Of a stretch of DNA of 64,000 nt, positions 10,329 through 35,900 are shown in pieces. This DNA comes from Flectonema sp. DT1601 (Eukaryota). The number at the start of each line of letters is the position of its first letter. Position 1 is the stretch's first letter. The stretch spans positions 1,116,001 through 1,180,000 of the forward strand of contig OZ025785.1 in the NCBI GenBank assembly GCA_964019425.1. The letters run 5' to 3'. Position numbers and translations under genes: made by a program. Below the pieces are notes generated by a model. That model had not been told where the DNA came from. It did not search any database and worked only from the letters and a program-made list of their open reading frames with translations.

Positions 10329-10532
10329 TGATGATGATATCTGTGATTGTCAATTATTTTTATTTTTGTTTTATTTTAATGAAAAGAAAACGAATAAACA
10401 AAAGAAATTCTGACGTTTGAAATTCACAATCATATTAATGTGACTCTTAGGTAGGATGAGGTTTTCTGTTTGAGATATTTCTCCAGTTCTCGTATCGCTT
10501 ATTTTTATTTTTATTTTTATTTTATTCTTTTG

Positions 10533-11993: not shown

Positions 11994-14900
11994 ATGTTTT
12001 GTTCGAGAGTGCTAAGCGTGATGGCGCTGTTGGCTGGAGCTCATGCTGCTGCTGCACCTACGACTTGCAACCCTGCGGGGTTGCGTGGAGAGGGACTGCT
12101 TCACCACGATGTGAAGCACCTAATGCCGGGGACATTTCAAAAGACTGCGGCGATGATCTCATCGAGACAGCAACATGTTGCTTGTGACGGGGACTGCGTC
12201 AGAAGCTTCAGGGACACCACCACTCACTCACCGCTCAAGTATGTATTTCACTTAGGTGGACTCTTTTTTTCTTTTATTTTTTTGTTCAACTTGTTGCAAA
12301 AAAGAAAAAAAGAAATGGGGAAGGGGAAGGGATTGATAATAACAATAATAACAATATTTAAAAAAACAGCATTCACGTTGACTTTTCACTTTTGGATGAT
12401 TCAAGATACGCTTGTCAAAATACTGGAGACATAATCCAGTTGGCGCACGACCCTTCTCCGGGAGCCGCAAATGCTTTTGGAGGGGGCGGGTACACGACGA
12501 GCAACAACATCGACTACGTGTGCCCGGATTCATGGGTGATGACGAGCAACAAGAAGCAAAGACTGAAGGACGCGGTGAACAGGGCAGTGACTCGAATCAA
12601 AACGGGTCTGATGGCCAAACACGTGGTCGAAAACGAAGGAATCATCAAGACGGTCGACGGGAGGGTGAACTGCAACGCTCGGGACGGTGATTCGAACGTT
12701 TTCAGCAACCTGTTGATCGCAGAGAACGGAGTAGCGGCGGACTTCGTGTTGTATGTGACGGCCAACCCGGTGATCGTCTTTGACGGGTCGGGTTCCAGGA
12801 TTCAAGCCAATGCTGCAGGTTGGCCGTGCCACTTTGCGAGGGAGAGTTCAAGACCGGTTATCGGTTTGATATCATTCCACCCGGATCAAGTGTCGGATAT
12901 TGACAGTGAGGTTCAGTACATGTCGAGCGTCGCGCTGCACGAGTTGGTTCAGGCGCTGGGATGGACTCCGGAGCTTGCGGTGAACGACAAGTACATCACC
13001 AACTGGAACGCTGAGGGAAGAACGTTTGACCAACTTCCTATTGACCTCATGGTGACGAAGAGTGATCGTCTTGGAAAGAGGGGTTACCTGAGATCTCGCG
13101 AAGTGACCTTTGCCGAATTCTTCGACGATCCGTCGTGGGTGCAGCCGGCGTTTTCTTCGTGGAGGGAGTCCTACCCGATTGGTACCCCAGCGCAAGTGAC
13201 GAAGCTGACGACTCCGACGGTGATCGAGCAGGCGAGGTTGCACTACGGGTGCAGCCCTACGGATGTCGATGGGCTGGAAGTCGAGGACTACACGTTTCGG
13301 GCGATGGGGTACGGCCGTGATTGGAACGACTTTCCGCAACACTTTTCAGTTCTTTGGGAGAAGCGTATCGCCAACGACGAGGTTATGAACCTTCAGGTGA
13401 CCTCGAAGGCGGTTCTGTCGAGGCTGACTCTCGCGATGCTTCAGGACACGGGGTACTACACGGCGGAGTTCTCTGCGGCGGAACCGTTGGCACACGGGAA
13501 CAACGAGTGCTTTGTGCTGACTTCGAACTGTTGGGCTTGGAGTGGTGATTACATTTGCCCGAGATCGGATGGATTGCCGGTGACGAGCCCCACGTTCTGC
13601 ACTGCCGACCGACGTGGACGTGGTACCTGCAATGCCGGCGAGTACGTGGTGTACAGCAGGTCTGTTGTGCCTCGGGTCCCTCGTGAGTACCTTGTGGTCA
13701 AGGATGCGGTGACTGGAACGAGATACTTGCCGTACTATGTCCCCAATCTCAGTTCTTATGCAGAGTTTAACGTGATGAGGGAACCGATCGTCAGACTGAA
13801 CGGAGGATGTGATGAAATCATGGACTTCTGTCCGGTGTGGGAACAGGTTTCGGTTGAAGACGACTGCAGCAACCCGACGGGGTGGGCCGGCACTCCCGCG
13901 CAGTACACGGCCCCGGGATCGACCTCTTCGTGCTTCGTTTCAAATCTTCGGACGTCTACCACGGGGACGCTTTCGGGAAGGTGTCTTCCTCACGTCTGCG
14001 AGGCTGCCGAGGCCGGGACGTTTGAGCTCACCCTGTTCGTGGGGAGGACTCAGGTAAAGTGCAGCACGAAAGGGAAAATACAAGCGGTCAGCTTGGCTGA
14101 TGGGATTGGTGGGGATATCTATTGTCCGGATCCCACTTTGTTCTGTGCAGGAAAGGCAGAGCTCCCTCCGGTGGCGTTGAGGTTAATCGAGGGTACGGGG
14201 GAAATAGTTGTCGGGGAGTCGACGGAGTTCGTCATCGAGGCAACCGCGATGGGATCCATTTCGGGAGTGAGGAACCAGATTGGAATGTGTGTGGTGTCCG
14301 GGGAGATCGACGAGATGTCCACGAGGGAAGCGAGCTACCACGGGAAGTGCGAGAGGGTTTCGACGAGTACTTTTACCCACATGGATTGCCCACTGTTGGA
14401 TGATCCGGTGAGGAGGAGCTCGGCGCAGCAGTGCCACGCTGCGTGTTGTGCGGATCCGGATTGTGTGATGTGGCAGTGGATCACGTCCAGCGGCGTGTGC
14501 AAGCGGGGATCGACTGGACCGGAGCTGTGCGAGGGTAAGCCGTGGGAAGTAGCTCAAGATGGAGCATACCTCAGGCGGATTACTCAGTTGCCTTCCTCGG
14601 GACTTCTCCCTGGGGAGACATGCAAGACGACATTCATGACGCGCCTCGGGTTCGAAGCGAAGGGACAGGCGAAGTTCAAGGTGTTTCTGAAGTCCGTGAG
14701 CAGCAAGATCGTGTTCTACGGGATCGGAGAAAACCTCCTCAATGACGTCATCGTGCGGACTGTGTCGGCGAAGGCCGGGCCTCCTTCGAACGTGAGGATC
14801 ACGTCGCCGCCTGAGGGAACCGAGATTCTGTCCGGAAGCGGGTTCGATGTCACCGCGATCCTGACGGATGCGTACGGAAACCCTTCGAGGGGCACTGCCG

Positions 14901-17900
14901 ATGGATCTGTTTGCCCGTGGGGGGTGAAGACTTCCGAGACGGATGTTGACTTCTTGGGTGACGACCGGGTGGTGATGGACGGGAAGTGCATTGAGCTGTA
15001 CAGGACGGCGATGACGAAGGCCGCTGCGAAGGAGAAATGCAGGACGGCTTGGGGAGAAGGGATGGGGACCCTCGCGACAATCACGAGCTTGGAGATGGAA
15101 CAGATGCTGGTTGGGGCCTCGGTGGGTTCTTTCTGGACGGGATTGGAGGTGACTGCCTTGACGATGCCGGCGACGACGACGTGGGATTCGGGGGCGGACT
15201 CGCAATGGTGGAGGGAGACTTACGGAAACCCGAATGGTCAGGATTACGGTGAATGGGGTTACAGGAAGGGTTGCTGCAGCGGAATCTGGGAAGCGGATGT
15301 CGACAGGTACGAAACCACCGCGGCGTTTGATGCGAATCCTCGGATCAAGAGCTGCATTCGATTCAACCCGAGCGTGTACGAGTACTACCCTTACGAAGCG
15401 GTTCTTTGCCGTGAGAGCTATCCGTTCTTCTGCGAGTTCAGGCCCCGATTGAAGTTGGTTGTGGACGCAGTGAGCGTGGATGCCGAGATAACTGCGCCTG
15501 TCGGAGTGTACGCGGGCAGCAATGTGAGGTTCAATGGAGTTGTCGCTTTGAGAGCGCCAGTCGGAGACACTGTTGATGACCACGATACCTTCATGATTCA
15601 GGTCACCAGCCCGGGAACGATCTTGTCGTCGACCGGAGGGCAGGTTATCTTGAAGTGGAAGGTGCCACCTCAGCCAACGCACATCCAGGCTCTGGGCTAC
15701 GATAGCGGGTCTGCTACGTGGTTGCCGTCGATCACGGTTCAGGCGGGCGGAACCATCACTGTGACGATCAACCCGACCGATGTCGGGGGGAAGTTCATTT
15801 CTTGGAGCAACATTATGTACTACGAGGTGAGGGACCTGTCTTCGGGGAACGCGTACGAATTCACAGGATCGTGTCCAAATGGGAGGGTGAAGGACGGATG
15901 CCGGGTTGTGATGACGCCGGAGAGCCATCCGTTCATTACTAAGGTGAAGACGATTGAGGTGGTCGCTTCGTCGGTGAAATTGACTGCCAACCCGGAATCG
16001 GTTCTGATCCACATTGTTCCGGGAACTCCGTGCGGGATCGACGTTGATTGCCCAGCGGCTGCCGAGTACGCATCGGTCATGGATCCAGTTGATTTTAAGA
16101 TTGTTGATTGCTACGGCAACCCTGTCTGCGACAGGAGGAGCAACGGGATGCCGATCACCGTTTCAGGTGACGGGCAGCGGGCCCTCGCTTCGGGCTTCGG
16201 ATCTTCTCCGACGTCTGTTTGCGGGGCGTTCAGCTCGGAAGGCGACTGCAGAGAGGGAGGATGCCTCTGGGGAACTGCACAGATGGATCCGTTGATCTGC
16301 GAGCCGGGAACCTGTTGCTACTCTGTCAACGGTCCACGGTTGGTTCCACACCGCGGATCGAGCGATTTCTTGGGAGCGCAGAGGCTGTGTTTCCCCAATG
16401 ATCGTGCCATCCTGTTCTCTGGTAGCGAGGCTCCGTACATCAGAACTGCGAGTTGCGCGTACGACCTTGCGGAATTGTCTGACTTCGAAGACATCTTTTA
16501 CATCAGACCGTCGACTTCGGGGAAGCTGCACCTCGAGGTCGCTTCGAGTGGTTCAGAAATTGTGAAGCCCAACGAGTACGAAGAGATCGGGGACAAGTGT
16601 ACCCCTGATTCCAACGGTGTGACCGGACTACACGACACCTACACCTGGGACACAGCCGATTTCTGTGACCCAACGGAGTCGTCGTTCGATGCCGCAAGGT
16701 GTTTGAAGCCGATGAACGCGGATGTTTGCAAAGAGCTTTGCAACCTGTACCCGAGTGCGGGCTGCATTGGAGTGGAGTACTCCGAGGCAGCTGTCGTCGC
16801 TGATTCAACAGCAGCATCGTGTCCCGCGGAGTACCCGATTGCATCTGACGGAAACACCTGTTGCAAGGCTGGTGATTCCTCGGACTGCACGGGATGCCCG
16901 GCGGTCGCCGACCAAAATCAGGAACAGAATTTTCTGTGCACCGTAGGTGGAAACAGCTTCGTTTTCCCCGGCAAACTCACGGATCTGGGACTCGTGTCAT
17001 ACCAGACAGTTGATGATGAAAGTTGTGCTGATGGTAGGAGAACGGTGCTGAAGTTCACTGATACGGCAGCCCACCACGACAGAATATTAGGTCGGCTTAG
17101 TTGTGGGACCTTGGGTGCGAGTAGTGTCACCCCTGCTAACACGTGTGTTGCACACGCTCGTGTAGAAAGCTTTGGCGAGTATGCTGGATGTCGCATTCAG
17201 CAAGCTTCCGTTTCCGAATTTCGAGTAGTAAATGCTGTTGAAGGATGCCCTGTGTTCTGTGATGCAAGGGGGTACCAATACTGGGGTTTGGTCTGTCCGT
17301 TCGTTGATGGGACAGTAGGGTGCATATGTTCTACACCTGCTGAATTTGATGGATCAGCTGTGACGGATGATGCCGATTGCTGGTCAGCCAGTGGGAACGA
17401 GCCTCAGTGCAACGGTGCGAGCTTGAAAATTGGAACAACAATTTATGGCTCGGGTCGCAGTGAGAGGGCGGCAGCTTTCTACAGGGTAACGCGGTCTGTT
17501 GCTGTGTCTACTTCGAGGACTTGCGCAGACTGGAAATCTGATGCGAAAAGCTGCTCATTGATGTTGAAGGGACCGAGGCCAGCGTCCACCACGACCATTA
17601 CCAACGGGCCTGTGGTCTACGGACTAAAAGACGGACACACCGGAAACCTTAACAACTACGAGAACACTTTGACGAAGGCGAGCGCGCCGTCGGAATCGAC
17701 AGCGGGCGACATGTGCTTCCGCAGAGGGGTGACGATCAAGGGAACCAAGCCAAGCCTCAGCGTTCAGATATTCGGACCGAAGGATTCGCTCGAGGCAGTT
17801 GATGGGGAAAGAGGCAGAGAAGAACTCTGGACGTGCGAACCCTCCCCGTCGTCGAGTGTGTCGTTGAAGCAGGCAAACGTGGAGGCGAACCGAATCTACG

Positions 17901-20900
17901 CGATCAAAATCAATGTTCTCGAGGAGGTTGATGCGGTTGAGTCAAAGCCTCTGTACACGGTGAGGCTCGGCGAGGAGAACGAAGCCGGACTGTCTTGCGG
18001 AGAGGACATGGAGTGCACGGCGGGACATCCGTGCCCAGCAACATGCAGTGAGTCGATGTTCTCGGGATTGATTGTCCCTGCTGAGAGCGGGAGCTGTGCC
18101 GAGTCGACGTTGACGGTGTCGCTTCGCGCCGACAAGGAATGGACTGATGAGTTTGGCCTGACGATCACGGAGGGGACTTGCGAGGTTGCGATGGGTTGCT
18201 CAAAGTTCTCGCTTCAGGCACCCGATGAGATTACTTCGGGAAGGACGCTCTGGAACTTCGTGGCGTTCTCGGTGTCGGCTTCGGCGGGACAAAATCTCGG
18301 CGACAGGCAAATTGCATGGAGGCTGGTGGCGATTGACTGCGAAAACAATGTGGTGGAGTCGTGGAGCAGCGTGACCGACACGGAACTGGATGCGGCGAAC
18401 GGCTACTCGAGTTCGGCAAGCAGAGACTTCGAGGGTCCTGCGTGGGGATCGGGATACCGTGGAACGTGCTCGTACATCACTTTGAGGATCATTTCAACCA
18501 GCCACCCGATCAAGGCTGCGGAGAAGAGGGTTGTCGTGCTGCCGGGTAATCCGTATGCGGTGGAAATCCTGAAGGATGTCCCGAGCTGCTACGAGGCGTG
18601 TGACGGAGATGCGGGTTGCGACAACCTCCGATTCTCTGTTGTCCTGAGGACCGAAATCGGTACCAGGTCGCTCACGGATGGGATTGAGTGTACGGCGTCG
18701 GCTGAACACCTCGATGAAGGGAATAACCGTTACGTGTCGTCCGCGTTCTCGCCGTTTCCGAAAATCGTGAAGCAGACTGCTCAGGGAGTGGCGACGTTCT
18801 CGACCGGGTACAAGCGGGCGGGAGATCTAAAGATCGTCGTGAGCTGCGTGTGTGCGACGTGTGCGGGTGACAGGAGGGCTGTTGTGATGCAGAGCATGCA
18901 AAGGTTCGTGGAGGTATTCCCGGCTGCGCCGTCGTCGATCACCTGCAGCGCGCCGACCCGTGTGTTGGCGGTTGACGACATCGATGTATCGGCGTTTCTT
19001 TCGGACGAGTACGGAAATGAGGTTTCCGAGAGGGTGTCTGGAATGGAGCTGTCCCTGAGGAAAACGTCTCCTGGAGAGGGGACTGGGGCCCTGGCTGGGG
19101 CGAGGTCGGTGGCCCTGTCGCCGAACGGTGATGCCGAGTGGATCGTGCAGCACGATAAGACTGTCAACGCGTTGGCGATCGAGATCTCGGTCGCGGCACC
19201 GACGCTGAGCTCCCCGTCGGAACCGTATTCGTACACCGGGTGCTTCACGACTTCGAACGTGGGGTCTTTGCTCGGAAGCGGTTGCACGAAGAAGAGGGAG
19301 TCGGAGAACATGACCCCGGCGATGTGCGCAAAGGTGTGCGCAATCTTCCCGACGTTCGTGCTCACCGGGAACGATGTTGGTTCGAGGGCGACGGTCTGCA
19401 TGTGCTCGATGCAGGAGGCGATCACGGGAACGCCGACGGCGGGAGCGAATTGCCAGAGGCACGGATGTCAGGGAGACGTGCTCGGAACGAACAGCAGATG
19501 CGGATGCGCTGTGGGAACGGATGCGAGGATCGTGGCAGCTTACAGGAGGAACACGAACTACCAGCAGACCGGGATCGCGGCGACGACGTGCGGTTTGATC
19601 AGGGTGTACCCGAACAGGCCTCGGGCGTTGAAGATCACCAAGCAGCCGTGCGAGTGGGTTGGAAACACGCTGGTGGGGAACTACGAAAGGAGGTGCCAGC
19701 AGGCGCTGAGCAGCGCGAGGTGCCCGGATGCGGCTGTGAACCAGCAGATGAGCTACACGGTGGGGGTTTACGATGCCGGTGGGAACTTGGCGGACACGGC
19801 TGGCGACTACAGGACGTTCGCGAATGCGAGATCGGTGAGGGAGTGTTACAAGAGGTTGGTGACGACGACGACGGTCGGGGGCGAGGAAATCGAAACAGAC
19901 GAGGTTTGCTTCGACGGGTACCCGGACGTGGAGGTGTCGCTGGAGCGGATCTCGTACGCGGGAGGACTGTCGATTCAGCCTGAGAAGCACAACCTTCGAA
20001 GCGGAAACGTGTTTACATTTACCACGACGCAGGTGGACGTGGGATGTGTTGTTTTGTGGGCGACTGCCGACGGGGCGTTGGATAGTTCGGCGGCGACGAA
20101 CAAGATTTGCTTCCACGCGGGGCCGATTGCCCGGATCGTAATCGTCGAGTCGCCGGAACAGGTGTTCGCTTTGAGCAAGTTCCCGTTGTCGAAGGCAGTT
20201 GTCTACGACAGGAACGACAATAAGGTCACCTGGGCGACTTCGTCACTCGGAATCTACCCGTGGGACGACGGTGCGCAGCCGAACGCGGAGGAGTTTTGTC
20301 TGGGGAGGGTGACGACGGGGGAGGGGGAGGTGAGAACCGTTCCCCGCGTGGTGAACGCGCTCATCAATTTGGGGGCGAACCACCCCGGTGCGACTTCGGA
20401 AAGCAGGAGGCCGTACAATCCGAGCACGAAGCTGAGCGGCGGTGAGACGACGTTCGGAGGGTTCGCGTACCAGTCTCTGGAAGACGGTCTGGACACCCCG
20501 TGCTTCAGGTTGAGGTTGTCGTTGGAGAGGGATGGCGGGAATCCGTCGGTGTTGGGATGCCCTGCCGGAACGTCGGGTCGGTTGATCGAAGCGCTCCAGC
20601 TGAAGGAAGATGAGTATTCAACTGTTGTCGGTCTCTCTGATCGCATTGAAATATTGCCGGCGTCGCTTGCGTTGGTTTCCCCGTCGAGCGACACGGTGAC
20701 CGTCAAGGCCGGTACTCCGGTTACTGCGATCATCTTCTGGACTGCTGACACCCAGTGCTTTGCGGATCCGACGTGCCAAACCGACGCGTTCAAGGTTCGG
20801 ATGGAGTACGTGTCGGGGCCAACGAGTTTATCTGACTGCGCGATGTGTGGTTACGAGGTTTCGTCGCCTGATGGCAGGCAGGTTCGGTTCTCGAACATCA

Positions 20901-23900
20901 TTCGCAGGGTCGCGGGTACCTACAAGTTCCGTTTCTGGGGGACGTCGCAGGACGTTCCTTTCGCGGCACCTGTTGACCTGACGATCATAATCCTCGCTGC
21001 TGATGCCGATAGCTTGAACATCGTGTGCCCTGAGGAAGTGGTTTTCGGGTCCGGGTTGGTTGTCGACGCGGGGACGATGTTCGCGTACCAAGTGGATGTT
21101 CGGGATGGGTACGGCAACCCGGTGAAGACGTGGAGCGAGGACATCTCGTTGCACGCGAGGGTCGCTGGCGGATTTAGGACGTACGCTCCGTGGTACGACT
21201 TTGGGCAGCCGATCCACGTGTCCCAAACGCAGGGGAACACGTACGCCGTTTTCAACGGGCTCTCGATTGAGAAGACCGGAAGGTACGAAATCTACGCGAA
21301 GTCGGGGAGGTTGTTTAACGACTTGTGCACGGTGACGATTACCGCTGCGGAACCGGAAAACTGTGCCGCGTATTTGACGGACAGCCCGGTAGAAGCGCAG
21401 CCGGAGTACGTGAAGGCGGGAGTGAACATGAGGATCCGGGTTACGTTCCACGATGCGTACGGGAATCTGATTGCGGCGAAGATGAACGGGGAGACGGTGA
21501 CCGTGGACCTCGCGCAGGGAGTTACTGGAATGCTCCACGGGACGACGGAGAAAGTGGTGAGCTCTGCGCTGACGTTCTTCGACGTGAACTACCAGGTGGC
21601 ACCGAAGGAGATCGGGTTCATCGCTTCCGCGAGGGAAGGGTCGTTGTCGTGCAGCACCGACGGTTTGCTGATCGTCGCCAACGACCCGGCGACGATTAAG
21701 ATTATTGAGGTTCGCGAGAGGGAACCGAGTGCGGAGACTCCACCGAAGGAGCCGTTGCAGCCTATCGAGGGACCGAACAACGATGAGTACCTGTCTCCGT
21801 TGACTGCTGGAGAAGACTTCTGCGTGAAGGTCCACATTGTCGACGAGTTTGGAAACATCGTGGACGAAAGCAATGAGGAGATCAGGAAGTTGTACACGTC
21901 GAACGCGGGTACAGGAAACAACGGCTCGCCGCCAATCTTCAGTTTCGATCAGGCGAACACGCAACCCTTGTTCACGTTTGGAGGTGATTCTAATTCTGAC
22001 GGAGGTTTGTTGTCTTTCTTGGATGACGAGCAGGGGTCCGATGAATGTAACGACAACTTCATCCTCCTTCCGTTCTTTGGCTTCGAACCGCCCCAGGAAT
22101 GCGGTTCGGGGGTTCCTGTGTTGGATACCGATGACTTGCCGCTTGATAACAACCCGACTCTCGATGATGGAAACGCTGAAGCGATCGGGGGGGAAACGTC
22201 TCCCCAGGAGAGCAACCCCGAGTACCCGATGAGGCGGGTGACGCTTGCCAGGTCCGGATGTGCGAGGGTTGACGGATGCAAGAGCACCACCGATGAACTT
22301 GACGGGACGACGCAGCTGGACTCTGTGAACGGAGTGTTCGATATTTGTGGAGTGCAGTACGTCCGGTCCGAGTGCATTTACATCATGGCGTCGTCGGCGG
22401 ACCTCGGAACCGACGAGTCTCCAAAGGTTTGCGTGTCGCACGCGGTGTGGGACAACATGCAATGCGTGACGACTACTACGAGAACCGCGCAGGGGAGGGA
22501 ATTCGGAGGATTCAAGGTGTCGATGTTCGACGTGCACGGGAACCCTGCGAGGAGCTGTTCGAGGGATTCGGATGACAGGTCATGTGAGGTGACGATCCAG
22601 GAAATGGAGGAGAGAACAACAAACGGGTACACGTGCTGCGGGAAGAAGACGGACCCGAACCTGGCACCGGGAGTTTTGACGGGAGAGGAGCTGACGATCG
22701 ACGCAGCTGGCGGAAAGGCGGACTTCGATGAGTTGGTTTACAGCAGAGGAAGGCCGGCGAGCGATGCCCTCGAGATTGAGGTGGTTGGGGCTGACGGAAT
22801 CCGTGCGTACTGCGGTCAGGTTGTAGTCGTGGGAGTCCGTTTGGTGTGTACGGAGTCCCCTCCGGAGGTGGTTGCCGGAGAGGCGTTCGCGGTTGAGGCG
22901 AAGATGATGACCTGGAGCGCGGCTGACGGGGAGTACGTGGACATCAACTGCGTTGGGGAGAACAGGAACACCCTGTGTCCTACAATGGGGAGGCTCAGAG
23001 TTGCCCAGAGCACGGGAACGTTATCCGGAAACTACTTCTTCGTGAGACAGGCTGGGGCGTCCGGGTACTCGAATGCGCACTGCGGTGCGGCGGCAACAAG
23101 GGGAGCGTGCGGCGGAATTGCGGACCCGGCATGTTCGTACGGCGTTCACGTGACGGAGCCGTTCCCTGCGATGAAGAGCGCGCTGAGCTGCTACAACCCG
23201 ACGCCGGACTTCAGCGGGTTCCAGGTGTCTCCAAACACGTTGGGGCAGCTGACGTTCTCGTCGCTGAGGTACTACACGGCGACGACGTTCAGGCCGGAGG
23301 CAACCCCGAAGCACGCGAGCGTTTCGACGAGGCAGTGGGCTGCGGCAGTGGCGGCTGACAGCGAGGCCCCGGGGGTGTGCGATCCGGTGAAGGTGGTGGC
23401 GAACAAGCCTTACGAGCTGTGCATGGGTGGGACCACGAGTTCGTTTCAGGCAATCCTGCACAAGGGGTACTCGGAGACCCCGAGCTCGGTCAGGTACGGA
23501 GCGAAGTTTGAGAGGTGCAAGTTGCTTTGCGACGCGAGCAACACCTGCAAGAAATGGGCGTTCGTGCCGGATGAGAAGGTGTGCAAGCTGTACACTGCAG
23601 GGGACATCGTGCCGACCGCCGACGAAGAGGGAACGGTGTCGGGATGCAAGGAATCGGACGACCCGGCGTGCAAGTGCACGTGTGCTGGGGCGGAGGGTGG
23701 TTGCCCGGCATGCTTCACGGTGAAGCCTGGAAGCTGCTCCAAGTGCGCGGGTCCGAACTGCGGTAGTTGCCCGGCGAAGACTGTCGTTGCGGGAAGACCT
23801 TTGACGATGGGGATGAGGATTCACGATGAGTGGGGCAATGAGATCTCTGAGACGATTACGAAGGAAGTGGTTGTGTCGTGCAAGGTGACGCGGGGACCGC

Positions 23901-26900
23901 TTCGCAACCCCGAGTACCGCCCGACGCTGTACCCTGAGCCGGTGTTTTCGGTGGTGCCTGTGACATCGGAAGATGAGCAGCAGAGGAAGGGGATGGTGAC
24001 GATCACGGGTCCGTCGAGCCTGCGCGTGGCCGGAGACTACGAGGTCAGTTGCTGGGCGGACACCTGGGGACCGGAAGGGGAGATGGACTCTGGTATGCCT
24101 GACCTGACGAACTACCAGGCACCGGGCGGTGTCGTTTGGACGCCGGTTGGGGTGGTGACGGGAAGCGGGGGCGAGTGGGTGGCCCGCCAGCAGCTGCAGG
24201 ATATCCTCGACGCTTCGTCCAACCAGATAATCCGCAGGCGGTGCCTCGGATGTTCCCAGGAATTCACGTTCATCAAGATGAAGAAGCACTTCGGCAACCT
24301 CGGCGAGGTGTTGTCGAAGACGTGGTCGTCGGCGGTCGCGGTCGGAGACTACGAGGTTTACAACACGTACCGGGATGCCGTGCTCGGGGTGGACAAGTGG
24401 GTGGACGCCTGCAGTGCATGCGAAGGCCAGACGGACACAAGCTGCCCCCAGGGGATCTGCGTGTTCGAAGGAACCTGCAAGCCTGCGTTCGAGGTCGGCT
24501 TCCCGGGAATGTGTGGCGGGGGAAGGGTGTGGACCCCTACCGGGGTAGAGGGGCAGGACGTGCTGACGACGGCCAAGCACGTCACGTTCGCCGTTGAAAC
24601 CGCTCCGGGGTGCACGCCTCGGGTTGGAAAGGCTGCCGACTCGGAACGCATTCGGGTGGTGGATGCGAGAACGTTCGACGAATGCGTCAAGAATGTGAAG
24701 GAGACGTACAACGGTTTGACCGAGCGGGAGGCAACGGCGGCAAGTTGGAAGAGTTCAAACGGCAAGTGCTTCGCTGTGGTCGGTGTTTGGGGAACCAAAA
24801 CGCGGGTCAGAAGGGGGACGACGAATTTGGCCAGGTGGCGCACATGCGACTTCCCAGCTGTCAACAAGTACTCGGTTTCGGTCGGGGGTTGCGTGTGCTA
24901 CGGTGAACTGTGCCCTTGCAGCTCGCCGCCGAGAAGCAACCCGAACCTGAGAAAGGTGTGCGGGGTGAAGGTGATCCCTGCGGCGGCTGACCACCTGACG
25001 TGCCTCGACCGTCCGAAGGACACGTTCGTTGGACAGGAATTCGACGTGACGGTGGCGGTGCGCGATGTGTACTCGAACCGAGTCGCCTCCGTGAACGAGG
25101 GGACGGTGACTGCGCATTTCAAGGGTCTGTCGAGCCCTGCGGGGGACATTGTTTCCGGGGTGGCGACGGTGTCGATGGCGCTGAAGAAGTATGGCGACTT
25201 CAAGGTCCAGGTGACGTCGGACCTGGCAAGCCTCGCGAATAAGGTGGCGCGTTGTCCGGCAACGGTGTTGAACGACGAGGAAGACAACTGCCCACCGCAC
25301 AGGGTGACCTGTCCGATCGAGGACGACAGGTGTTGCGATGGAAAGGTTGCTTGCCCGGGGGCCAACAGGATTAAGGTGTGCCCCGGTGACTTGACCACGA
25401 TCACGTTCGCGACGCATCCGCCGCACAACGTGCCGTGCACGTCGGAGAAGCGTCAGCAGTCGGAACAGATGATCCCGAAGATCACCATTAAACTCTTCGA
25501 TGAGGAGGGGAACCTGAAGATCCTGCGGCCGATCAAGGTGAGCATCATGCTTGCGACGGCGACGAACGGGGCTGCGCCGTCGGAGGAGGGAAGGTTGTCA
25601 GGGACGGTGTCGAAGGACTCGGTGGGGGGAGTCGTGGTGTTTGACGACCTGTCGTACAACGTGGCGGAAAGGATCGGTCTCAAGGTAGAGGCGTTTGAGC
25701 AGGGCGCGGTTGTGTCGGGAGTGGACATCACGGTGCAGCGCAAGTCGACGGCGATCATCAACGTGTGTCCGGGAGACATCTGCAAGATCGAAATCGAGGA
25801 TTCACCGACTACCTGCACCTTCGACGTGGTGACTGAAGACCCGATTGAGGTGGTTGCGAAGGATCACTTTGGCAACAACTTGCTCGACCATCAGGTTGAG
25901 GATTGCGAGATCTCGGTCAAGGTGAAGAAGACGGGGACGCCGGACGGATTATTCTGGGTTCGCGTGAAGGACGGTTCGTCATCGAGCGAGGATCGCTACA
26001 GCCGCGCCCGATTGGGGCACACGGTGACGAAGATCAGCGAGACTTCGTTCATCATGTACGGTGGTTCGCTGGTTCGGCGCGAGGACCGTGACTTTGAACA
26101 CCTCGGAAGGGCCAGTGGACGCATCGATCGAGAGTGGGGGGACAGACGTGTTTGGAGGTTCGACGTCTTGACTTCGGAGTGGACGGTGGTTTGGTCACCT
26201 CCGGAAACACCGAGCTTCAGAACCGAGGGAGGCGACGTTCCTGCAGAGGGAGTTGTTGGAGGAAGATGCCTGTACCTCGGCGGACGTCGGCCTGCGGAGA
26301 GCCAGCTGGGGAACTGCAACGAACACGGTCCGACGCAGAAAGCCGGACACGCTGGGGAGTTGATTGGGAACAAGTTGGTCGTGTTCGGAGGGTTTTCCCC
26401 GGGTAAGTTTCGCACGGGACACTACTCTGGTGACGTGTGGATGTATGATGTGGTTACCAATCTTTGGAACCAGGTGGACGTCAGGGACAGTGAAGTCAAG
26501 TTCGGGGGCTACATGATGGCGTCGGCATCGTACCGCAGGCGGTTTTACGTGGTAGGCGGAACTGCTAGTGAGTTCGTTCCTGGAGAAAGCAACGGCCGCT
26601 TTTTTGCTCAGGGGAAGGCCACCCACTTGTACTACTTGGACCTGAGCACCGCGGTGACGGTGAGCGTAGCAACCGAGACACCGAAGGTGTCGTGGGTGAA
26701 GGTGCCGATCGGCGGAAATGACCATCCATACATCTATTTGGGATCATCGGCTATTCTCATTGGAACAAGGTTGTACGTCACCACCGGTAGGTCGATCGGG
26801 GAAATAGCTGACGACGTCGGAATCTACTCGATTGATCTCGAAAACGTGAACGGAGGGTGGAGGGTGGAGTCGCGCATCTTGCCGTACGTGTTTAACCACC

Positions 26901-29900
26901 ACACTGCGTTCGACGCGGAGACGAGGGAGATCATCATCTACGGAGGACAGGAGAGGTACGAACAGGCGGTCGGCCATACAGTTTTCACTGAGCAGTCGCG
27001 CGTCACGAGGTCGTTCAACATCGACACGAAGCAGTGGACGAACTTGAACCCGGGTGGGAAGTCGGGTTGTGTCGCGCAGAGCGGTTACGAGTACTTCGCG
27101 GCGAACCCAGAAAACGCGCCGGTGGTGTCGAACCGATGCAGTTTGAGGGGTGACGAGAACGCGTGTTCGTTGGCGGACGCGGGGGAATGCGCGTCGCGGA
27201 CGACGAAGGGGGATTGCCTTCCTGCGGTTGGTAGCGACAGTTTCAAATGCGCGTGGCTTCCAGGCGAGGCGGGGGCCGGGGAATGCGTGGTGCCCTGCCG
27301 ATGGGTGGACGCTTCGTTCGGAGGAGACAAACCCGGAAAGAGGTTCTACTCTGGAAATGCCAGGGGCCACGTCATCACCGTTGGTGGTCAAAAGAGAATG
27401 TACATGTTCGGTGGGATGACCAAGCTTTCGCCTGAGCAGCAGATGTACTCGGAGCACTTCTTGCAACCGGATGCGTATGCTGTATTTCCCGATACGGTGA
27501 CGTCGTCGGACAGCGACATGTGGTACCTGGAGATGCCGAGCAGCGGTGCGAAGGAGGCGTTCGACTTGAGGCCGTACGAGAAGAACTGCCGGGCGGTAGC
27601 GGGAACTGAGACATCGTGCGCTCACTTGTGGTGGAACAAGGTGCAGTGCGAAGGAACTGCGGGGTGCAGGTGGTTCGCCGGTTCGGAGTTCGTCTCCGGG
27701 GATCAGGTTCAGTGCTCGGCTGCGGACGGGCCGGACTGCGTTGTCCTTCACGGAACAACGTCGTTCAGGATGCCTTCGTCGTCTGTTGAATTCGATAACA
27801 TCATCGTGTCATCGACGAGGAAGTTGTTGGAGGATTCGATGGCTTACTGCGCGACTGTAGTCGAGGGTATGAACTGTCAGCAGCACGCAACTGAAGAACA
27901 ATGCACGGGAGGGGAGGGAGGAGACTGCAGGTGGGTGGTTGAGGCGCCTACCAGGAGGATGTCGATCCAGATGTTCGTGTCGGTGAAGTGCGGGAAGAAG
28001 GATCCTCGCTGCCCGCTGTCGCCGGTCGACTTGCCGTCAAGGGTTGAATGTGCTCGTTGCAAGCTGACGGTGAACAAGCAACCTGGTGGGGAACACTTGG
28101 TGATGGGAGCTGGGAAGCCGATCTTCACGTCGAACTTGCCGGGTCACAGTTTGAGTCCGATTACCGTTGATGTCACTGGTTCGGATGGGTCTCCGGTCAC
28201 CAACCTGGACAACTCGGATGACATTCTGAGGGACACGTCGATCACCCTTTGGCTGTCGAGAACGAGGTTCTCGTCGAACAGGGAGAGGACGTTGGAGTCG
28301 TCTACGAAGGCGATCGTCGGAACGAGGTCGACCTTCGAGCAGAGTGACTTGTCGTGGAGCGTGGACTCGGCGCCTTCGGTGATTTGGTTGAAGGCGGACC
28401 ACGCAGAGGGTGTTTGCGAGTCGAGCCACGCATGGCCGGTGAACGTTGTGAACGACCACGCTTGTGGATGGAAAGTCAGGAGCGTGAAGCAGGAGGTGAA
28501 GGCCGGGGAGGCGTTCGACGTGGACGTGACTCTGTTGGACAAGTTTGGAAACGTGGCGTACTGCGACTACCAGAGAGGGCACTGGAGGGAACCGGCTTCG
28601 GGACCTGCAAAGGTGCTGAGGACGTTGCCGGACAGCAACGAAGACGCGTGCGCGCAGGCATGCCGCGAGAGCAGGCGCTGCAGCTCGTGGAACTTTGCCG
28701 CGGAGAGCGTGACCCTCGAGGGAGCGAATGGCGGGACCCGTATGATTCCGAAGGGAACGTGTCTTTTGAACAGGGGGCTGACAGTCATCAAGAGCCGGGG
28801 ATGGGCTGAGGTGGAGGGGGCGGTGACCGGTGTTCCGGGAGGGATCTCGTGCAGAAACGGGGAGTACCTTGCGGTTGAAGCGGTGGCGGCCGACGGGGAA
28901 GCCGTTGAGGGGACGATGTTCTCGGCGACGCACGGGCTCGGGAAGCCGCGTTGTGTCGTGATGGGGGTCGAAGAGGCGGTTGCGACCCTCGTGTTCGGTG
29001 GAGACGCGAAGTCGTGCGGGAAGTGCTGCCGCGAGAACGGGGCCGGCAAGGTGGTCGAGTACCGCGAGGAAGGACACGCGACCAAGTGCGGTTGCACCGA
29101 CGGGACGTTCCCTTTGGCGGGGACTTCTTCGTGCTCGGGGTTGTCTGGAGAGGGAAAGAGGTACGTGTCCGTGAGGGACATCGTCGAGGGGTTCCAGGAG
29201 GACGTGGTTTCGCACAGGGCGACTTTCAAGAAGCTGTGGCACAACAAGGCCGAGCAGATCAAGTTGGTGTTCCACCTGCGTTCACACTTGGAAGGCGCGC
29301 CGAGCGCGGGGTGCGCTGTGGACCCGTCGGGAACGTTGAAGGTGATTCCAAACGATCCTCACCACCTCAACCTCGAGAGGATTCCGGATGTCGTGCAGGC
29401 GTCGTGCGGAGTCGACAACCCGTTTACTGTTGAACTCGAGATTGTCGATTTCTGGAACAACAGGGTTCCTGTTTCCGACCACGTGGTCGAGATTTCGGTT
29501 GAGGTCGGCAGCGAGAGGCTCATGGGCACGACGGTTACGAGGTCGGTGAACGGTCTCGTGACCTTCACGCTCAAGTACCAGAAGGCCGAATACTTGACCC
29601 TGTACGTGACGGATCGAAACATCGCTTCGGGGCAACAGCAGCAGCAACAGCTGAGCATTGCTAGCGGAGCCGGAAGCAGCGAGGCTGGCAGCTGCGCGGG
29701 AAGCTGCTCAGGAAACAGCTGCTTGAACCCGACGGACAGCATGTGCTGCCTGGAGCTTCCGCCGATCAGGATCCTCAGCGGGCCTGCATACAAGTTGGTT
29801 ACGATTTCCCAGCCGCCGTCGGTCATTCAGAGTTACGGAAAGGGGGATTGCGATGGGTTCGGCTACGAAGTTCAGTTGCAGGATTCGTGCGGCAACCCGA

Positions 29901-32900
29901 TCGACTCGGAGCACGCTGGCGAGAGTGCGGCGGCCAAGTACGAGGGGACCGAGGTACAGGTGGTGGTGGAAACCGGTGATGCGACTCGGTACGTCGCGAG
30001 CAACTGTGACAGCGAAGTGTGCATCGGCAGGTTGGTCCCGCTGCGTCCGTTTGCGACTTTGACTTGTTCCATTGGCGGATCAAGCCGCTGTTCTTGCAGT
30101 GACTTGATCAACGAGGCGACCGTGGACATCGAAAAGGGATACGTTTCCGGGGAGGATAACCTCGTTTGCCAGGCTTGCGAGGCTGCCGGATTCGGGAGCG
30201 CCTGGGATGTGAGAAGGGGATTGCTGACAATCTCGTCGACGGAAGCGAGGTCGCTGGACTCGTTCACGCAAATGATGAAGAGTGTCGTGTTCACGACGTC
30301 TTCGCTGGAGAGCGAAGAGCGCACCATCACCTGGAGTTACGGCCACGCGTTCTACTCGACATACACGAATCACTTCTACCATTACTACCCAAAGGCGTCC
30401 TGTCAGGATGGATACCCGGTGGGAGAGCGTGTCAACAACCGGTGCCACTGGAGGGATGCGCAGACGGCGTGTGAAAGCAAAACGGTTCTGGGGATGCGTG
30501 GGTACCTGATGACGGCGACGGACGCCACGGAAGACGAGATCGGAAAATCGAAGATCCAGGGGAGCGGATGGATGGGAGCATCGGACAGGGCGGAGGAAGG
30601 GACGTGGGGATGGGTGACGGGTCCGGAAGGTCAGCGGGGAGGCTGCGTCTACGGAGAGGGGAAGACCGGTTGCTTGGAAAGTGAGATTGGTTTGGTGTTT
30701 GGAAGAGGCCAGGCCCCGGGGTTCAATGCCGTGATCGATCCCGCGACCGGAAACCCGTTCTACAACGCGTACTCGGAGACTGAGCCGAACGATTACGGAG
30801 GTGGTGAAGATTACCTGCACTACTGGCCATCTGGAGCATGGAACGACTACGCGGCCGAGCAGCGAAATATCGATGGTTTCATCTGCGAGTGGGGAGGGCT
30901 CGATGAACCGTGCGCGAGCATCGGAGAACTGTCGGGGACTTTGGTGATCAGGGCAGGAAGCGGAAGCCCTGCTGGAAAACACACTATTTTGAACCCGCCG
31001 CTCATCCTGACCGGGGGAACTTGCACCATCGAGGGAGCGCACTCTCAGGTGGACCCTGACCTGCGGTTGACGGTTCGCCTTCCGGAGTACGCGGCGATCA
31101 GGCCGGCGAAACCGAACCCGATCGAGGTTGAACACTGCACCCCTCGCAAGCTGAAGATCACTGAGCCGAAGGGATGCAATGATCCGAAACTGCCCCTGCC
31201 GGTGATTGGAGTTCGCACTCAGATGCCTGACATGACGGTTGTTATTTTGGATCGCGATGGAAACGTTTGCGACACGACGGAGGTGCTGTCGGCGACCGAC
31301 GTCGGGTGCCTGTCGACGCTCGAGGCGCCGCCGGGTGCCCGTTTCATGCGTACGAAGTCGAAGGACCAATGCATGCGTGAGTGTGCTGGTCTGGGATTCC
31401 AATACTTCGGGATGACCGAGGTGGAATGCAGATGCCACATAGCGTCGGACCTCGAAGGGTCTGAGGAAGCAGAGGGCGTGCAGTGCACATCGCAGTGCTA
31501 CTCGGAAGCGCAGAACATTTGCGGTGAGGATCCGTTGTCGATCGCGATGTTCGAGATCCGGACGACTTACGGAAGGCTCGAGTACTCGACGTACACGTCG
31601 AGGGAGAACCCGAGGAGGAAGCTGGACCCTCGGTTCTCGGCGCTTTCGATCGCGGACAAGAGCTTCGCGGGAGGCGGAGGAGAGTTGTTCGGGTCGCTGG
31701 TGAAGGATGCGTTCGAGGGGGTGGTGGTGTTCGACGACACGGTTTGGCTGCCGGACCAGGTGAGCCGCGCGGCGTGTCTTGCGAACTCGAGAGCGGAGCC
31801 GTGCTCTGGGCAGCTGACGCTCGAAGTGGAGGATCAGTTCGGGGAGCTTGAGAAGGACACCTGCGTGGTGCGGTCGCAGAACGACAAGGTGGTGTGTCCG
31901 TCGGCGACGACGTTGGCTACCAGGGTCGGCGAGGAATTCGACATCTGGGCCTGGGTTGACACGAGCTTCGAAGGAATGGACGTGACGACGATCGAGTTGA
32001 CGATCTTCGACGACAGCAACGAGCTTCAGATTGTTGAGGGCCCGCACCCTGAACAGGGGAATGGTGTCGTGAGCAGCTGGGTGAAGTCGGGATCGAGGTA
32101 CGTGCTGACGGTGACGAGCAGCGGGGTCCTCAGGGAAGAAGACAGGGTTTGGTTCCCGAGACTCTTCTACTCGACGGTCATCCCGTCGAACATGGAGAAG
32201 GTTGACCGGACGATCAGGATTCAGTCGGACTTTGCGGAGGAGTGTCGGGTGAAGGTTCAGGTGTCGGCCGGTCTGGTTTCGAAGTGCTCGAGAAGGCTGC
32301 CGTCTTCGACGTGCTACAGGGCATGCGACTATTTTGGGTTCGAGTACTTTGCGTTGGATACGTACGGCAACCAGGTTAAGGGGGACAAGGGACGTTGCGT
32401 GTCGACGTCGACGACGCCTGGGTCGTGCCCAGGGAGGGGAACGTTCCCAGAGGGACCGCGGGGAATGGGGACTCTGAAGAGTATGTTCACCCAGGAAGCC
32501 GGACAGATCGGTGTCGGTGTCACGACCCGTCGCAGGAACGGAGTGTTGGAGCTGTTCCTCGAGGACACCCTGCGGTATTGGAAGAGTACTTCGATTCCGA
32601 TCGAGTGGAAGAACGGTGAGGCCCCGGACTACGGGAGGATCGAATCGGGCGAGCTTTGTGTTGTGTTGGACAAGGTGACCAGGTTCGCAGGTTCAGCCAG
32701 CTTGGAGACCTTCTCTTGGACGACTGCCGCGTGCTCGGGGGTCGAGAGGTTCTTCTGCAGCGCGACGCGGGTCAATCGTAACCAGTGCAGCAACTGGATC
32801 GCGCCTCCCTACGGCCGCGTGGCGGTGTCGCAGCCGCCTCCGGTATTCACTTCGAACGGTGGGAGGGACGTTCTTTATGGGAGAACATTTTCTTACGGCA

Positions 32901-35900
32901 ACCGCGGAAAATTCTCTTTCAAAGTGTACTACTTACGGGCTGTCAGGGCCCGCGAGTTGACGGCAACCTTGATCGCAACGACGGGCGAAGAGGTCGACTG
33001 TGGGTTCGGGTTGAAGACCTTCGAGATCGACATCTCCCCTGCGTTGCCGCGATACCTGAGGGCGACGATCTCGGCGAATTCGCCGATTTCGAGGGACTCG
33101 AATAATTGGCCAGTTGTTTGCATTTCGTGTTCTTCGGTTGATTCTTTCGACGTCAGGGTGTCGTCGTGGGACTCGTATGGCAACCTCAACAGTTGGGATT
33201 GCGAGTCTGAGGACGCGTGGTCGTCGAAGATAGGCAGGGTGACGATCTCGGCTGAAGGGGTGGTTGATGGGAAGCTTGTGAAGCCGGATTCCACGGGACT
33301 CGTGGGAATGCCGGGGACGGTGGCGGAGGCAAGGGACGGGAAGCTGATGCGGGGAGGAGTGGCAACCTTCAGCGGGCTGCGATTCAACCGACCAGGGTTC
33401 GTCAAGTTCGTGGCCGAGGTGAATGAATGGACTGTGCCGACTTGGAAGCCGACGTTTCCGGTTGTGTATGCGCACTTCGAGGCGTGCCTGCCGAGGAAGC
33501 TGGTTCTGATCGAGGGAGAGCCTTCGCCGGTGGCAGGAAAGGAATTCGTGATGGGCTATGAACTCCGTGACCAGTACGACAACAGGATCACGGCTGATCC
33601 GTTCGATGTGTTGGAGAAGGCGAAGAGGTTGAGCGGCCAGGGCAGAGTTGTGAAGTTCGGGTTCACCAACGGCTATGCGAACGAGGAGCACAGCGTCGAG
33701 GAAATCGATTCCTACTACAGCCGTCACGGAAGGTACGCGCACGCGGTTACCCACTACAAGGTGTTGTACGGGACTTCTATCGTTGCGGTGAACACGAAGC
33801 TGGCTTTGGGAGTTGAGAACGAAGTCTTGATCGACCTGACGGGGACGCCGTTGGAGACGTGTTCGGCGGCGACGATCGAGAGGGATGACGAGTTGAACCT
33901 GAAACACAACGAACCGATCTCGCTTTCGGGATTGGTGCACGACGAAACGGTGCACTACGACGAGCCGTTCGCGTACGGTGTGAGCGCGTACCAGTACGAC
34001 AGATGGAACAACGAGGGTATCGAATGGGAAAGCCGTTACGGAGGGATCGAGTGCAAGCTGGAGTTGTCGACGGCGACGGTGTCGTTGTCGGTTGACGGCG
34101 TCGACACGGAGGTGACGTACACGCTGCCGTTCGTTCCGGTGGCGACGAATGAGCAAGGTGCGGGGGGAGCCCAGCTTGCGAGGGGAGTGCAGCAGCTGGA
34201 TGCGATGCAGGACGCTCTGCGGGCTTGGTTCAACGAGGACGCGACGAGGACGGGGCTCACCAACACGGTGCCGTTTTCCCGGGCGGGATCAGATACGAAG
34301 GTTCCGTACTTCGTGCCGAGTCTGTTGATGGGGCAGAGGATGGGGGACGACAGGAGGCCGGTGGCGTACAGGAGTTCGATGGTTTGGTTCAGGCAGACGT
34401 TCTCGAGGAGGGCGACGGGGAAGTTCAAGCTGCTGACGACGTGCGTCCGTCTGGACCGAAGCGCGTTTCGAGTGGACGATCCGCAGGCCCCGCAGCGGTT
34501 CAGCAAGGAAACCGCGTACATTACGGTTGAGAGGAACGCCATCGAGCTTGTCCGCGAGCCGCCGAGGAACCCGTGCAGGCGTGCGGGAGACGCGGCGTAC
34601 TTCATCGCGAAGTTGACCCTCGCGAACGGCGACGACCTCGTGAGCTTCCCGACGGGAGTCCGTCTGATGTACACGATGCTTTCGGTGGACTCGAGGACGA
34701 CTTCGGGGCCGTTCGCTTGCGACGACGCGGTGGTCGTAAAGCGGGAGACTTCGCACGCGGACTTGTCCCAGGAATCGCCTCACACGGTTTGGGTGAGGTG
34801 TTCGATCAACAGCGACAACTCGGAGTCGAACTTGCCGGCGGGGCTGAACTTGAACGGTATGAAGGATCGCAGGCAGTCGTGGGTCGTGGACCTGCCTGGG
34901 CGTCCGACGATCATGCAGGACACGTTGGGCGGGGAGGTGGCTTCCGGGTACTCTTCGGTGGAAGCGGAGTTCATCGAGTTCATCCACGCGTGCACCGACA
35001 AGATGGTGAGCGACAGTCGCCCGCCGAGGGAGGTTGTGGTGAACACGCCGTTCTCGCTGAAGGTGACTTTGAAAGACAGGTTCGAGAACAACGGCGGTGT
35101 GTACACGATCACGGTGAACGCGTACAACGTCAACCCGGAGGGTTTCGTGGGTGATTTGAACACGCATTTGGTGAGCCAGTTCACGAGCAGCGCCCAGAAG
35201 GACCAGTCGCTCGGTGCGAACGACTTCGCGACCGGGGGGGGAGTGGCGTCGTTGTCTGGGTTGTACGTCGACAACGAGTTCCTGAGGGACGCGTCCGGCG
35301 AGGAAGGATTCATTTGGGTGGTCGCTTTCGTGAAGAAGAACTCCGGGAAGGGATGCGATGCCGGGTGCGACCCTCACTTGGAGGGATCGCTTTCGTGCAA
35401 AAATGGTGCGGTCCCCCACCCAATATTTGGATGCGTCTCCTACAACTTCGGGCGCATTCTTGTGACGCCTGACAAGTTCGAGAGCTGCCACTTCGTGAAG
35501 TTCCCTGGTCCTGACGGCATGATTGCGGGGTCGAGGTTCGCTGAAGATTTTGAAGTCGTCTTGGCCGACCAGCACGGTCTGAGGATCCACGAGTGGGGGC
35601 ACACTGACGAGGCGAAGATGACTGTGGTCGGAAAAGACAGCAAGACGCCTGGGTACGGACTGAATTTGTTCATGGATGCTGTTGGCCTTTCGCCCATCAC
35701 TTCTCCGAAGGAAACGGAAGCGGGCGGACTTTTTGTAGTTGAAATGGTCGTGGGTGGGTTGGCGGAAAACGGTGGACAATTCTCGAACTTGAATGGGCAA
35801 ACCGAAGACGAATGGTGGGTTCTTCGGGTGGTGTATGTGAACACCGAGCCAAGGGGTCTTTTAGAGATTTTCAGTAGCGACAAGGATACATTCAGCATCT

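Follow-up and report, generated by a model that had tools for sequence, protein, structure and literature searches.

Whole guest domains inside the Ig-like repeats of a predicted giant protein of Flectonema

The genome of Flectonema sp. DT1601 (assembly GCA_964019425.1) holds, in the 64,000-nucleotide (nt) stretch of contig OZ025785.1 analysed here (positions 1,116,001 to 1,180,000 of the forward strand; hereafter the window), a predicted giant gene whose product of 10,936 amino acids (aa) carries a rod of immunoglobulin-like (Ig-like) repeats with a DxxGN motif and an invasin/filamin-like fold. Whole domains, here called guests, lie inside these repeats. For four inserts an orthologue shows a clean empty site, and a further layer of splitting is seen in one guest, a cassette in which an Ig-like domain is interrupted by a C-type lectin. 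Guests occupy at least five loops of the host fold (A-A', B-C, C-D, D-E and F-G), in one repeat two at once, and their families suggest ligand binding. The protein is probably a branched, secreted, glycan-binding fibre, in which the loops of a DxxGN Ig rod carry whole guest domains. An earlier note, made from the letters of this stretch alone, had proposed that ligand-binding domains interrupt the Ig-like repeats and had named five examples; all five are in the sequence where it had placed them, within one stop-free frame.

Empty sites in orthologues

Two orthologues of the giant protein were found, namely P0001 (7319 aa, collinear, 23-28% identity) and P0002 (3107 aa, 34% identity), the latter from the EukProt transcriptome of Flectonema neradi, a diplonemid (PMC8061765), which makes the window likely diplonemid as well. 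The gene and the repeats discussed below are as follows (window coordinates; E is the expectation value, z a standard score).

11994..45449, plus strand: giant gene, predicted, with four exons (11994-12238, 12370-43519, 43746-43874 and 44163-45449)
14780..15667, plus strand: Ig-like repeat with a C-type-lectin-like domain in its B-C loop (guest ~14897-15448; from an AlphaFold2 model and the ESM Atlas)
16016..18200 (end approximate), plus strand: Ig-like repeat with a large guest that holds a further ~400-aa insert (~16553-17743; from the P0001 alignment)
18920..19609, plus strand: Ig-like repeat with a WSC-like domain (~19217-19558) before the likely last (G) strand (from the ESM Atlas and cysteine counts)
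20996..21676, plus strand: two uninterrupted reference repeats (contiguous profile z 5.6-7.6; weak Pfam match to Invasin_D3, E 8.6e-4, under the curated cut-off)
21677..22435, plus strand: repeat with an inserted low-complexity linker, acidic and ~120 aa long (split z 8.1 and 8.6, 0 of 400 shuffles, values which composition may inflate)
23399..24976, plus strand: repeat with two inserts, a PAN domain (A-A' loop, ~23426-23764) and ~300 aa (F-G loop, ~24053-24946)
25769..28078, plus strand: repeat with a Kelch beta-propeller in the C-D loop (~25937-27727; Pfam Kelch, E 1e-20; flanks conserved in P0002)
28448..29347, plus strand: repeat with two guests, a PAN domain in the B-C loop (28559-28858) and a cysteine-rich, possibly WSC-like domain in the D-E loop (28928-29215)
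29777..31129, plus strand: host repeat of the cassette, which lies in the C-D loop; P0001 and P0002 have this repeat whole
29975..30958, plus strand: the cassette, an Ig-like domain in which a C-type lectin with EPN and WND motifs (~30350-30898) precedes the last strand (~30926-30955)
31133..31888, plus strand: repeat whose B-C loop holds a WSC domain (31262-31570; Pfam WSC, E 2.3e-7)

The strongest evidence for guests within repeats comes from sites that are empty in an orthologue, a comparison that the earlier note had recommended and that bears out its proposal. The cassette (aa ~5872-6199) is absent from P0001 and P0002, and its host is unbroken in both (2/2): in the BLASTP alignment the window protein advances from aa 5877 to 6214 while P0002 advances from 2984 to 2999, and the right flank is 49% identical. 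The PAN domain in the A-A' loop and the ~300-aa insert in the F-G loop of the repeat at 23399..24976 are both absent in P0001 and present, in collinear order, in P0002, and the ~400 aa inside the guest at nt ~16553-17743 are missing from P0001, which aligns on both sides of them. A shorter piece of 56 aa (aa 3567-3622) is missing from P0002. Gain and loss can be told apart for the cassette only, by parsimony. Since P0002 derives from a transcriptome and holds the Kelch, PAN and WSC-like guests, these guests are part of the mRNA in that species.

The cassette, a guest that is itself split

The lectin of the cassette matches Pfam Lectin_C (E 1.5e-6) and contains both EPND and WND; the EPN motif would imply mannose-type specificity. 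A structural model of this region (642 aa, 11 rows) gives most of the cassette a predicted local distance difference test score (pLDDT) of ~70-89, with ~69 for the last strand, and the C-type lectin fold as modelled aligns to CL-K1 (Z 12.7) and codakine (Z 12.5). The cassette comprises 328 stop-free codons with a GC content of 0.58 and a GC content at third codon positions (GC3) of 0.70; its flanks have a GC3 of 0.78-0.79. This difference in GC3 is not decisive, as the value falls within the range of the gene itself (0.68-0.79).

Among 26 homologues of the cassette, four are from named bacteria, and the best is P0004 of F. neradi (46-49% identity). In prokaryotes (for example Flavobacteriaceae, Myxococcota and cyanobacteria) an Ig plus C-type-lectin cassette with a WxWVTGPE motif shows 27-36% identity along most of its length and the same order of parts, including the strand after the lectin, whereas the copy in the window sits inside another Ig repeat of a eukaryotic protein. 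A scan for cassette loci, which covered prokaryotes only, confirmed 557 of 607 pattern matches, from which ~1400 are estimated overall; when genomes were scanned with only the one cassette sequence, none of 85 pattern matches was confirmed. When the Ig part alone was followed in five genomes, 12 of 18 distinct units lacked the lectin and ran directly into the last strand, and six carried it. These lectin-less units identify the cassette itself as a split domain, so that three levels are nested here: repeat, Ig and lectin.

From this distribution the cassette is likely of prokaryotic origin, although a quick unrooted tree of 80 rows joins the eukaryotic copies as a long-branched pair (100) and resolves no donor group. 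As F. neradi has the cassette in P0004 and lacks it in the giant-protein orthologue P0002, it has likely moved between genes, or was lost from the latter. In P0004, an unrelated protein, the same cassette (residues 982-1185) follows a long array of cysteine-rich repeats, and the record stops inside the lectin.

Do the flanking halves form one repeat?

Following every DxxGN anchor, the second half of the repeat (strands C-G) was scored in two ways, as a contiguous stretch or with long jumps allowed and its end fixed at the next repeat, and compared with 400 shuffles. Two profiles were used, one built from library proteins only and one from these together with the repeats of P0001 and P0002. Five uninterrupted control repeats reach a contiguous z of 2.7-9.3; in four repeats that are interrupted soon after DxxGN the next 130 residues score between -0.5 and 0.9, which indicates that the second halves are not adjacent. 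When jumps are allowed, the repeat with the PAN and WSC-like guests scores 5.8 and 5.2 (0 of 400 shuffles; orthologues 1.1-2.8), and a profile search found its two jumps (aa 5401-5512 and 5547-5618) unaided. Similarly, the last WSC repeat scores 2.1 and 4.2 when split (3.8 and 4.4 in P0001) and at most 0.6 when contiguous, and the first lectin repeat scores 2.8 and 3.7 in P0001. A smaller, orthologue-built profile gives split z values of 5.7 for the cassette host and 3.1 for the Kelch host.

The first lectin repeat was also modelled with AlphaFold2 from an alignment of the P0001 stretch, which carries the same lectin insert, with 35 unbroken bacterial repeats that MAFFT spread unaided over both flanks, misplacing strand C. 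In this model the flanks have pLDDT values of 80-92 (residues 1-40) and 58-87 (residues 241-300), the guest of 27-50. According to VIA-align, model residues 4-298 match a single Ig domain of FdeC (783-885) over 97 positions (Z 8.6, root-mean-square deviation 2.8), and the model also aligns to invasin D3 (Z 7.6) and to filamin domains (Z 7.3). The halves of this host are thus predicted to refold into one Ig domain. Taken over the interrupted repeats as a group, this model, the split-profile scores and the empty orthologue sites agree with the single beta-sandwich which the earlier note had assumed.

Kinds of guests

For the guest of the first lectin repeat, 27 of 30 ESM Atlas matches (0.94) are Lectin_C-like, and hhalign points to a C-type lectin (E 4e-4, probability 34%). 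No match to this guest was found in Pfam or the PDB, and the EPN/QPD and WND motifs are not visible in its sequence. The PAN domains are recognised by Pfam (PAN_1, E 4e-4, in the A-A' loop; PAN_4, E 3.7e-7, at 28559-28858). For the guest at 28928-29215 neither Pfam nor our own WSC profile gave a WSC match, and its cysteine pattern alone suggests that family. The ~300-aa F-G insert, common to P0002, has no Pfam family above the cut-off and is in part PAN-like by eye, and the third-level insert at ~16553-17743 has a weak match to WSC (E 0.086). The doubly occupied repeat at 23399..24976, aligned to the uninterrupted repeat of P0001, scores -1, as compared with -36+-9 for shuffles (best of 60: -15). 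A further candidate, a PAN-split repeat at aa 600-806, was dismissed, its alignment to P0001 being no better than that of shuffles.

At 19.2 kb the guest is WSC-like in 26 of 30 ESM Atlas matches (0.93), without a Pfam match. Strands A-F of this repeat form a contiguous stretch, and doubt concerns the last strand alone. In the window and in P0001 alike, strands A-F contain a single cysteine and another follows the guest, which itself has an even number (10 and 8); among repeats of at most 185 aa, those with an A-strand cysteine have an end cysteine in 11 of 11 cases and those without it in 8 of 17 (p 0.004, with hand-set borders and related rows). This WSC likely lies inside its repeat, and it is the weakest of the five cases, with one strand only beyond the guest.

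Support for the five examples of the earlier note thus differs: it is strong for the lectin module (the cassette), good for the first lectin, the PAN and the last WSC, and moderate for the WSC at 19.2 kb. Its list was incomplete, missing the Kelch propeller, the A-A' PAN, the ~300-aa F-G insert and the ~400-aa third-level insert. Calling the inserts ligand-binding suits the families to which many of them appear to belong (C-type lectin, WSC, PAN), and is doubtful for one acidic linker, for several guests that are cysteine-rich or unassigned, and for the first lectin, in which EPN and WND are not visible. That guests lie inside repeats and not between them holds, by hand delineation, within the rod; outside it, the peptidase M8 head and the EGF/cysteine-rich tail have their domains in ordinary series.

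Relatives of the host repeats

A profile of nine window repeats matches 6779 clusters at E<=0.001, and the DxxGN profile has matches in 21/121 and 16/121 sampled genomes of two bacterial phyla. Against a profile made from library proteins only, the window repeats reach an E of ~1e-10, as expected of bacterial Ig-like extender arrays, and the window repeat matches invasin/intimin/FdeC Big domains and filamin repeats in fold (Z 7.3-8.6). Among the 150 best library proteins, a sample biased toward intact arrays, 2759 repeats are whole, 34 are represented by the N-terminal half only and two are split by at least 50 aa; extra sequence occurs between repeats at 62 of 2609 junctions and inside a repeat twice. 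In the window protein, six of 15 scored repeats are whole and nine match with the N-terminal half only, a pattern of partial matches which divergence alone also gives.

Both split library repeats belong to one protein, P0064, where a DUF6923 propeller-like insert occupies the C-D loop. In this low-cysteine protein, DUF6923/DUF4394 propeller-like inserts lie at ~1581-1831 and ~2061-2291, in the same loop as the Kelch guest and in the same repeat family. In the survey of split repeats, an automatically called 'split' pair from aa 1277 to 2137 proved spurious, as it joins different repeats.

The gene, its head and its neighbours

The four-exon model was inferred from the genomic sequence alone. 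Its GT..AG junctions yield a single open frame with one terminal stop, and the N terminus of the product resembles a signal peptide. The frame without stops at 12362..43585 (10,407 codons) includes all five named examples, and the predicted second exon of 31,150 nt contains all inserts, with no intron at their borders. In-frame insertion within a single exon, as the earlier note had it, agrees with this model; its dismissal of classical exon shuffling does not follow, since shuffling with later loss of introns would leave the same sequence. The introns of the giant gene are AT-rich with GTATGT donors. Pfam families along the product are peptidase M8 at the head, PAN, Kelch, C-type lectin, WSC and EGF; cysteines total 475.

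12482..14146, plus strand: peptidase M8 (leishmanolysin-like) head (Pfam PF01457, E 7.5e-21, 74.8 bits against a cut-off of 21)

The head also matches PDB entry 1lml (E 1.1e-6) and is homologous to leishmanolysin/GP63, with a changed zinc motif: at 12938-12952 the window copy reads HELVQ, where 1lml has HEMAH and P0001 HELVH. The HExxH motif of active M8 peptidases is thus lacking in this copy, and the third zinc ligand aligns ambiguously. The difference from P0001 makes the window copy a predicted lineage-specific pseudo-protease.

Window positions 1-10420 are an exact copy of 35122-45541 (10,420 bases, 0 mismatches, introns included) and correspond to the 3' portion of another giant-gene copy, which lies upstream. 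On the downstream side the first copy lacks about 1 kb that follows the second. Either a tandem duplication took place very recently or the assembly is at fault here. An antisense open reading frame (ORF) of 2083 aa, at 37235-43486 and again at 2114-8365 (both minus strand), was rejected as a gene. It is a codon shadow which exists because the sense strand avoids TTA, CTA and TCA codons (only 48 in 10,407), and the longest gap between these coincides with it. In the distal rod and tail (35600-39970), several beta-rich segments of 200-280 aa have no Pfam family and may be further guests. Neighbouring genes are a glycosyltransferase 61-like ORF (47594-49603, E 1.9e-8) and a kinesin (54108-63998, E 8e-63) whose tail exceeds 2700 aa; their GC content is ~36-43%, compared with ~60% in the giant exon.

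Secretion and avoidance of N-glycans

The predicted protein contains six N-x-S/T sequons where 61+-7 are expected, a number as low as this occurring in 0 of 300 shuffles. Control motifs are not depleted (N-P-S/T, 10 vs 3.3 expected; S/T-x-N, 59 vs 59), nor are sequons in the neighbouring glycosyltransferase or in P0004. Both orthologues have fewer than expected (2 vs 17 in P0002, 16 vs 27 in P0001). Such depletion points to a protein that is translated, passes through the endoplasmic reticulum and is under selection against N-glycans, and with the signal-like N terminus and the 475 cysteines it makes entry into the secretory pathway likely. One idea is that the scarcity of sequons keeps the protein from being bound by its own lectins.

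Weighing of alternatives

Several results speak against the reading of this protein as a branched, glycan-binding fibre with guests within its repeats, or fail to support it. In the window the split test is not significant for the first lectin repeat (z -0.2 and 1.4) or for the cassette host (0.3 and 1.5), and the Kelch host scores 0.7 and 0.8 with the two profiles. At 19.2 kb the contiguous score (3.1 and 5.0) exceeds the split score, and a G-like segment, SSPSEPY, precedes the WSC. Because the combined profile includes repeats of P0001 and P0002, scores for the repeats of these proteins are not independent. The first-lectin model was partly led, since MAFFT spread the unbroken repeats over both halves; its guest has a pLDDT under 50, and Foldseek found no match to the model at E<=0.001. 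The model of the cassette gives its host repeat a pLDDT of only ~25-49 and speaks neither for nor against that host. No transmembrane segment and no membrane anchor was found in the 10,936-aa product (top 19-residue hydropathy 1.59). The orthologue search gave only two proteins, and a metagenome scan for further ones gave 390 pattern matches, none confirmed. Both in silico checks that the earlier note had suggested had mixed outcomes: the profile search for split matches succeeded for the PAN/WSC-like and last WSC repeats and failed for the first lectin, module and Kelch hosts in the window, and structure prediction aligned the first lectin host as one FdeC domain, with low pLDDT (~25-49) for the module host.

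The scores at 19.2 kb and at the Kelch repeat would also be explained if, in some cases (chiefly the former, possibly the latter), the host were complete before the guest or consisted of degenerate separate domains, the guest being a bead in series. The resemblance of SSPSEPY to a G strand favours this, as does the library, where extra sequence is far more often found between repeats than inside them. Yet in P0001 the WSC follows too closely for a G strand to fit in front of it, the lone A-strand cysteine and the lone cysteine after the WSC are kept in both proteins, short repeats pair these two positions (11/11 vs 8/17), and beads in series cannot account for the empty sites; we consider the explanation improbable. 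Still less credible, and in our view very improbable, is that the guests never reach the protein, as in-frame introns or optional exons or through artefacts of the assembly. The Flectonema transcript does lack the cassette, whose borders have GT and AG dinucleotides nearby, and the exact 10.4-kb duplication means that the assembly may have faults. On the other hand, the cassette is stop-free with the base composition of the coding flanks and with intact lectin motifs, true introns of this gene are AT-rich with GTATGT donors, other guests are common to the orthologues, and P0001, which was called on a contig, likewise lacks the cassette.

A different objection accepts the split architecture and gives the protein a mostly structural role as matrix material (in the cell coat, in mucus, in extrusomes or in a scaffold of the feeding apparatus), with guests that cross-link copies of the protein or other components of the cell itself, and not prey glycans. 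The missing membrane anchor and the 475 cysteines would fit such a role, several guests are acidic, cysteine-rich or Kelch and not lectins, the strong avoidance of N-glycans would suit tight packing, and tubular extrusomes occur in several diplonemids (PMC8061765). Lineage-variable guests and an added lectin with intact EPN and WND motifs fit changing external ligands better, and we hold a mainly structural role to be rather unlikely.

Comparison with bacterial adhesins and other inserted domains

Ligand-binding domains projected by Ig-like 'split domains', nested ones included, are described for RTX adhesins such as AhLap of Aeromonas hydrophila (PMC12077191; survey 10.1101/2025.09.30.679566). 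The window protein shares with them Ig rod units that are interrupted by a domain predicted to bind a ligand and to project off the axis, several guests per protein and nesting on several levels (in the adhesins, a beta-roll hosts a vWFA domain which itself hosts an insert). It differs in being the product of a eukaryotic spliced gene, with a signal-like peptide, an M8 head, a disulfide-rich make-up and guests distributed along the rod. Its guests are C-type lectin, WSC, PAN and Kelch domains, as opposed to CBM/PA14, vWFA or PBD in the adhesins, and they occupy at least five loops, two of them in one repeat, whereas the survey describes two positions. No Pfam match to an RTX beta-roll was found in 45 overlapping pieces and the last exon, and in place of the N-terminal retention module there is a signal-like peptide followed by peptidase M8. 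The window protein thus resembles RTX adhesins in design and does not belong to them.

In eukaryotes, domains within domains are known from the integrin beta-I domain inside the Ig-like hybrid domain and the TED inside the CUB domain of C3. The alpha-I domain of integrins is inserted in a propeller (PMC10518620). Integrin I domains are ligand-binding domains within a eukaryotic host domain at a single fixed insertion, whereas the guests in the window are many and variable along the array. What sets the present protein apart is the combination of a eukaryotic gene, at least five loops, lineage-variable guests and a two-level cassette, probably of prokaryotic origin, in a design known from bacterial adhesins. 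A description of the giant protein was not found in the literature searched, which did not extend to subscription journals; the main text of the Diplonema papillatum genome paper contains neither 'leishmanolysin' nor 'peptidase', and its supplements might list the gene (PMC10161547).

Proposed mechanism and significance

If the host halves refold into one beta-sandwich, the guests would be expected to project sideways from the rod, and guests with N and C termini close together would be tolerated in at least five loops without disturbing its register from end to end. They were likely gained and lost by in-frame recombination at the DNA level within an intron-poor gene. The lack of introns at guest borders fits such recombination in an intron-poor genome like that of Diplonema papillatum, a diplonemid reported to be probably predatory and to have 1.6 introns per gene as well as genes transferred from bacteria (PMC10161547). 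The fibre, with a protease-like head predicted to be inactive in this lineage, would likely attach to prey or substrate through many surface glycans simultaneously. More speculatively, and with considerable doubt on our part, diplonemids may possess a megadalton secreted 'pegboard', in which nearly any loop of the Ig rod takes a cassette, cassettes (a bacterial split Ig-lectin unit among them) move between genes and lineages without introns, each species thereby has a prey-recognition set of its own, and N-glycans have been purged against self-binding.

These observations extend to a eukaryotic nuclear gene the split-domain design described for bacterial adhesins, and the naturally filled and empty sites of this gene make it possible to follow domain insertion as something that recurs within a single protein. 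They map the loops of an invasin/filamin-like repeat that tolerate guests of 80-600 residues and show why Pfam-style annotation misses such proteins. Finally, they provide candidates for the means by which diplonemids, abundant marine predators whose prey recognition we did not find described in the literature searched, may grip prey or surfaces.

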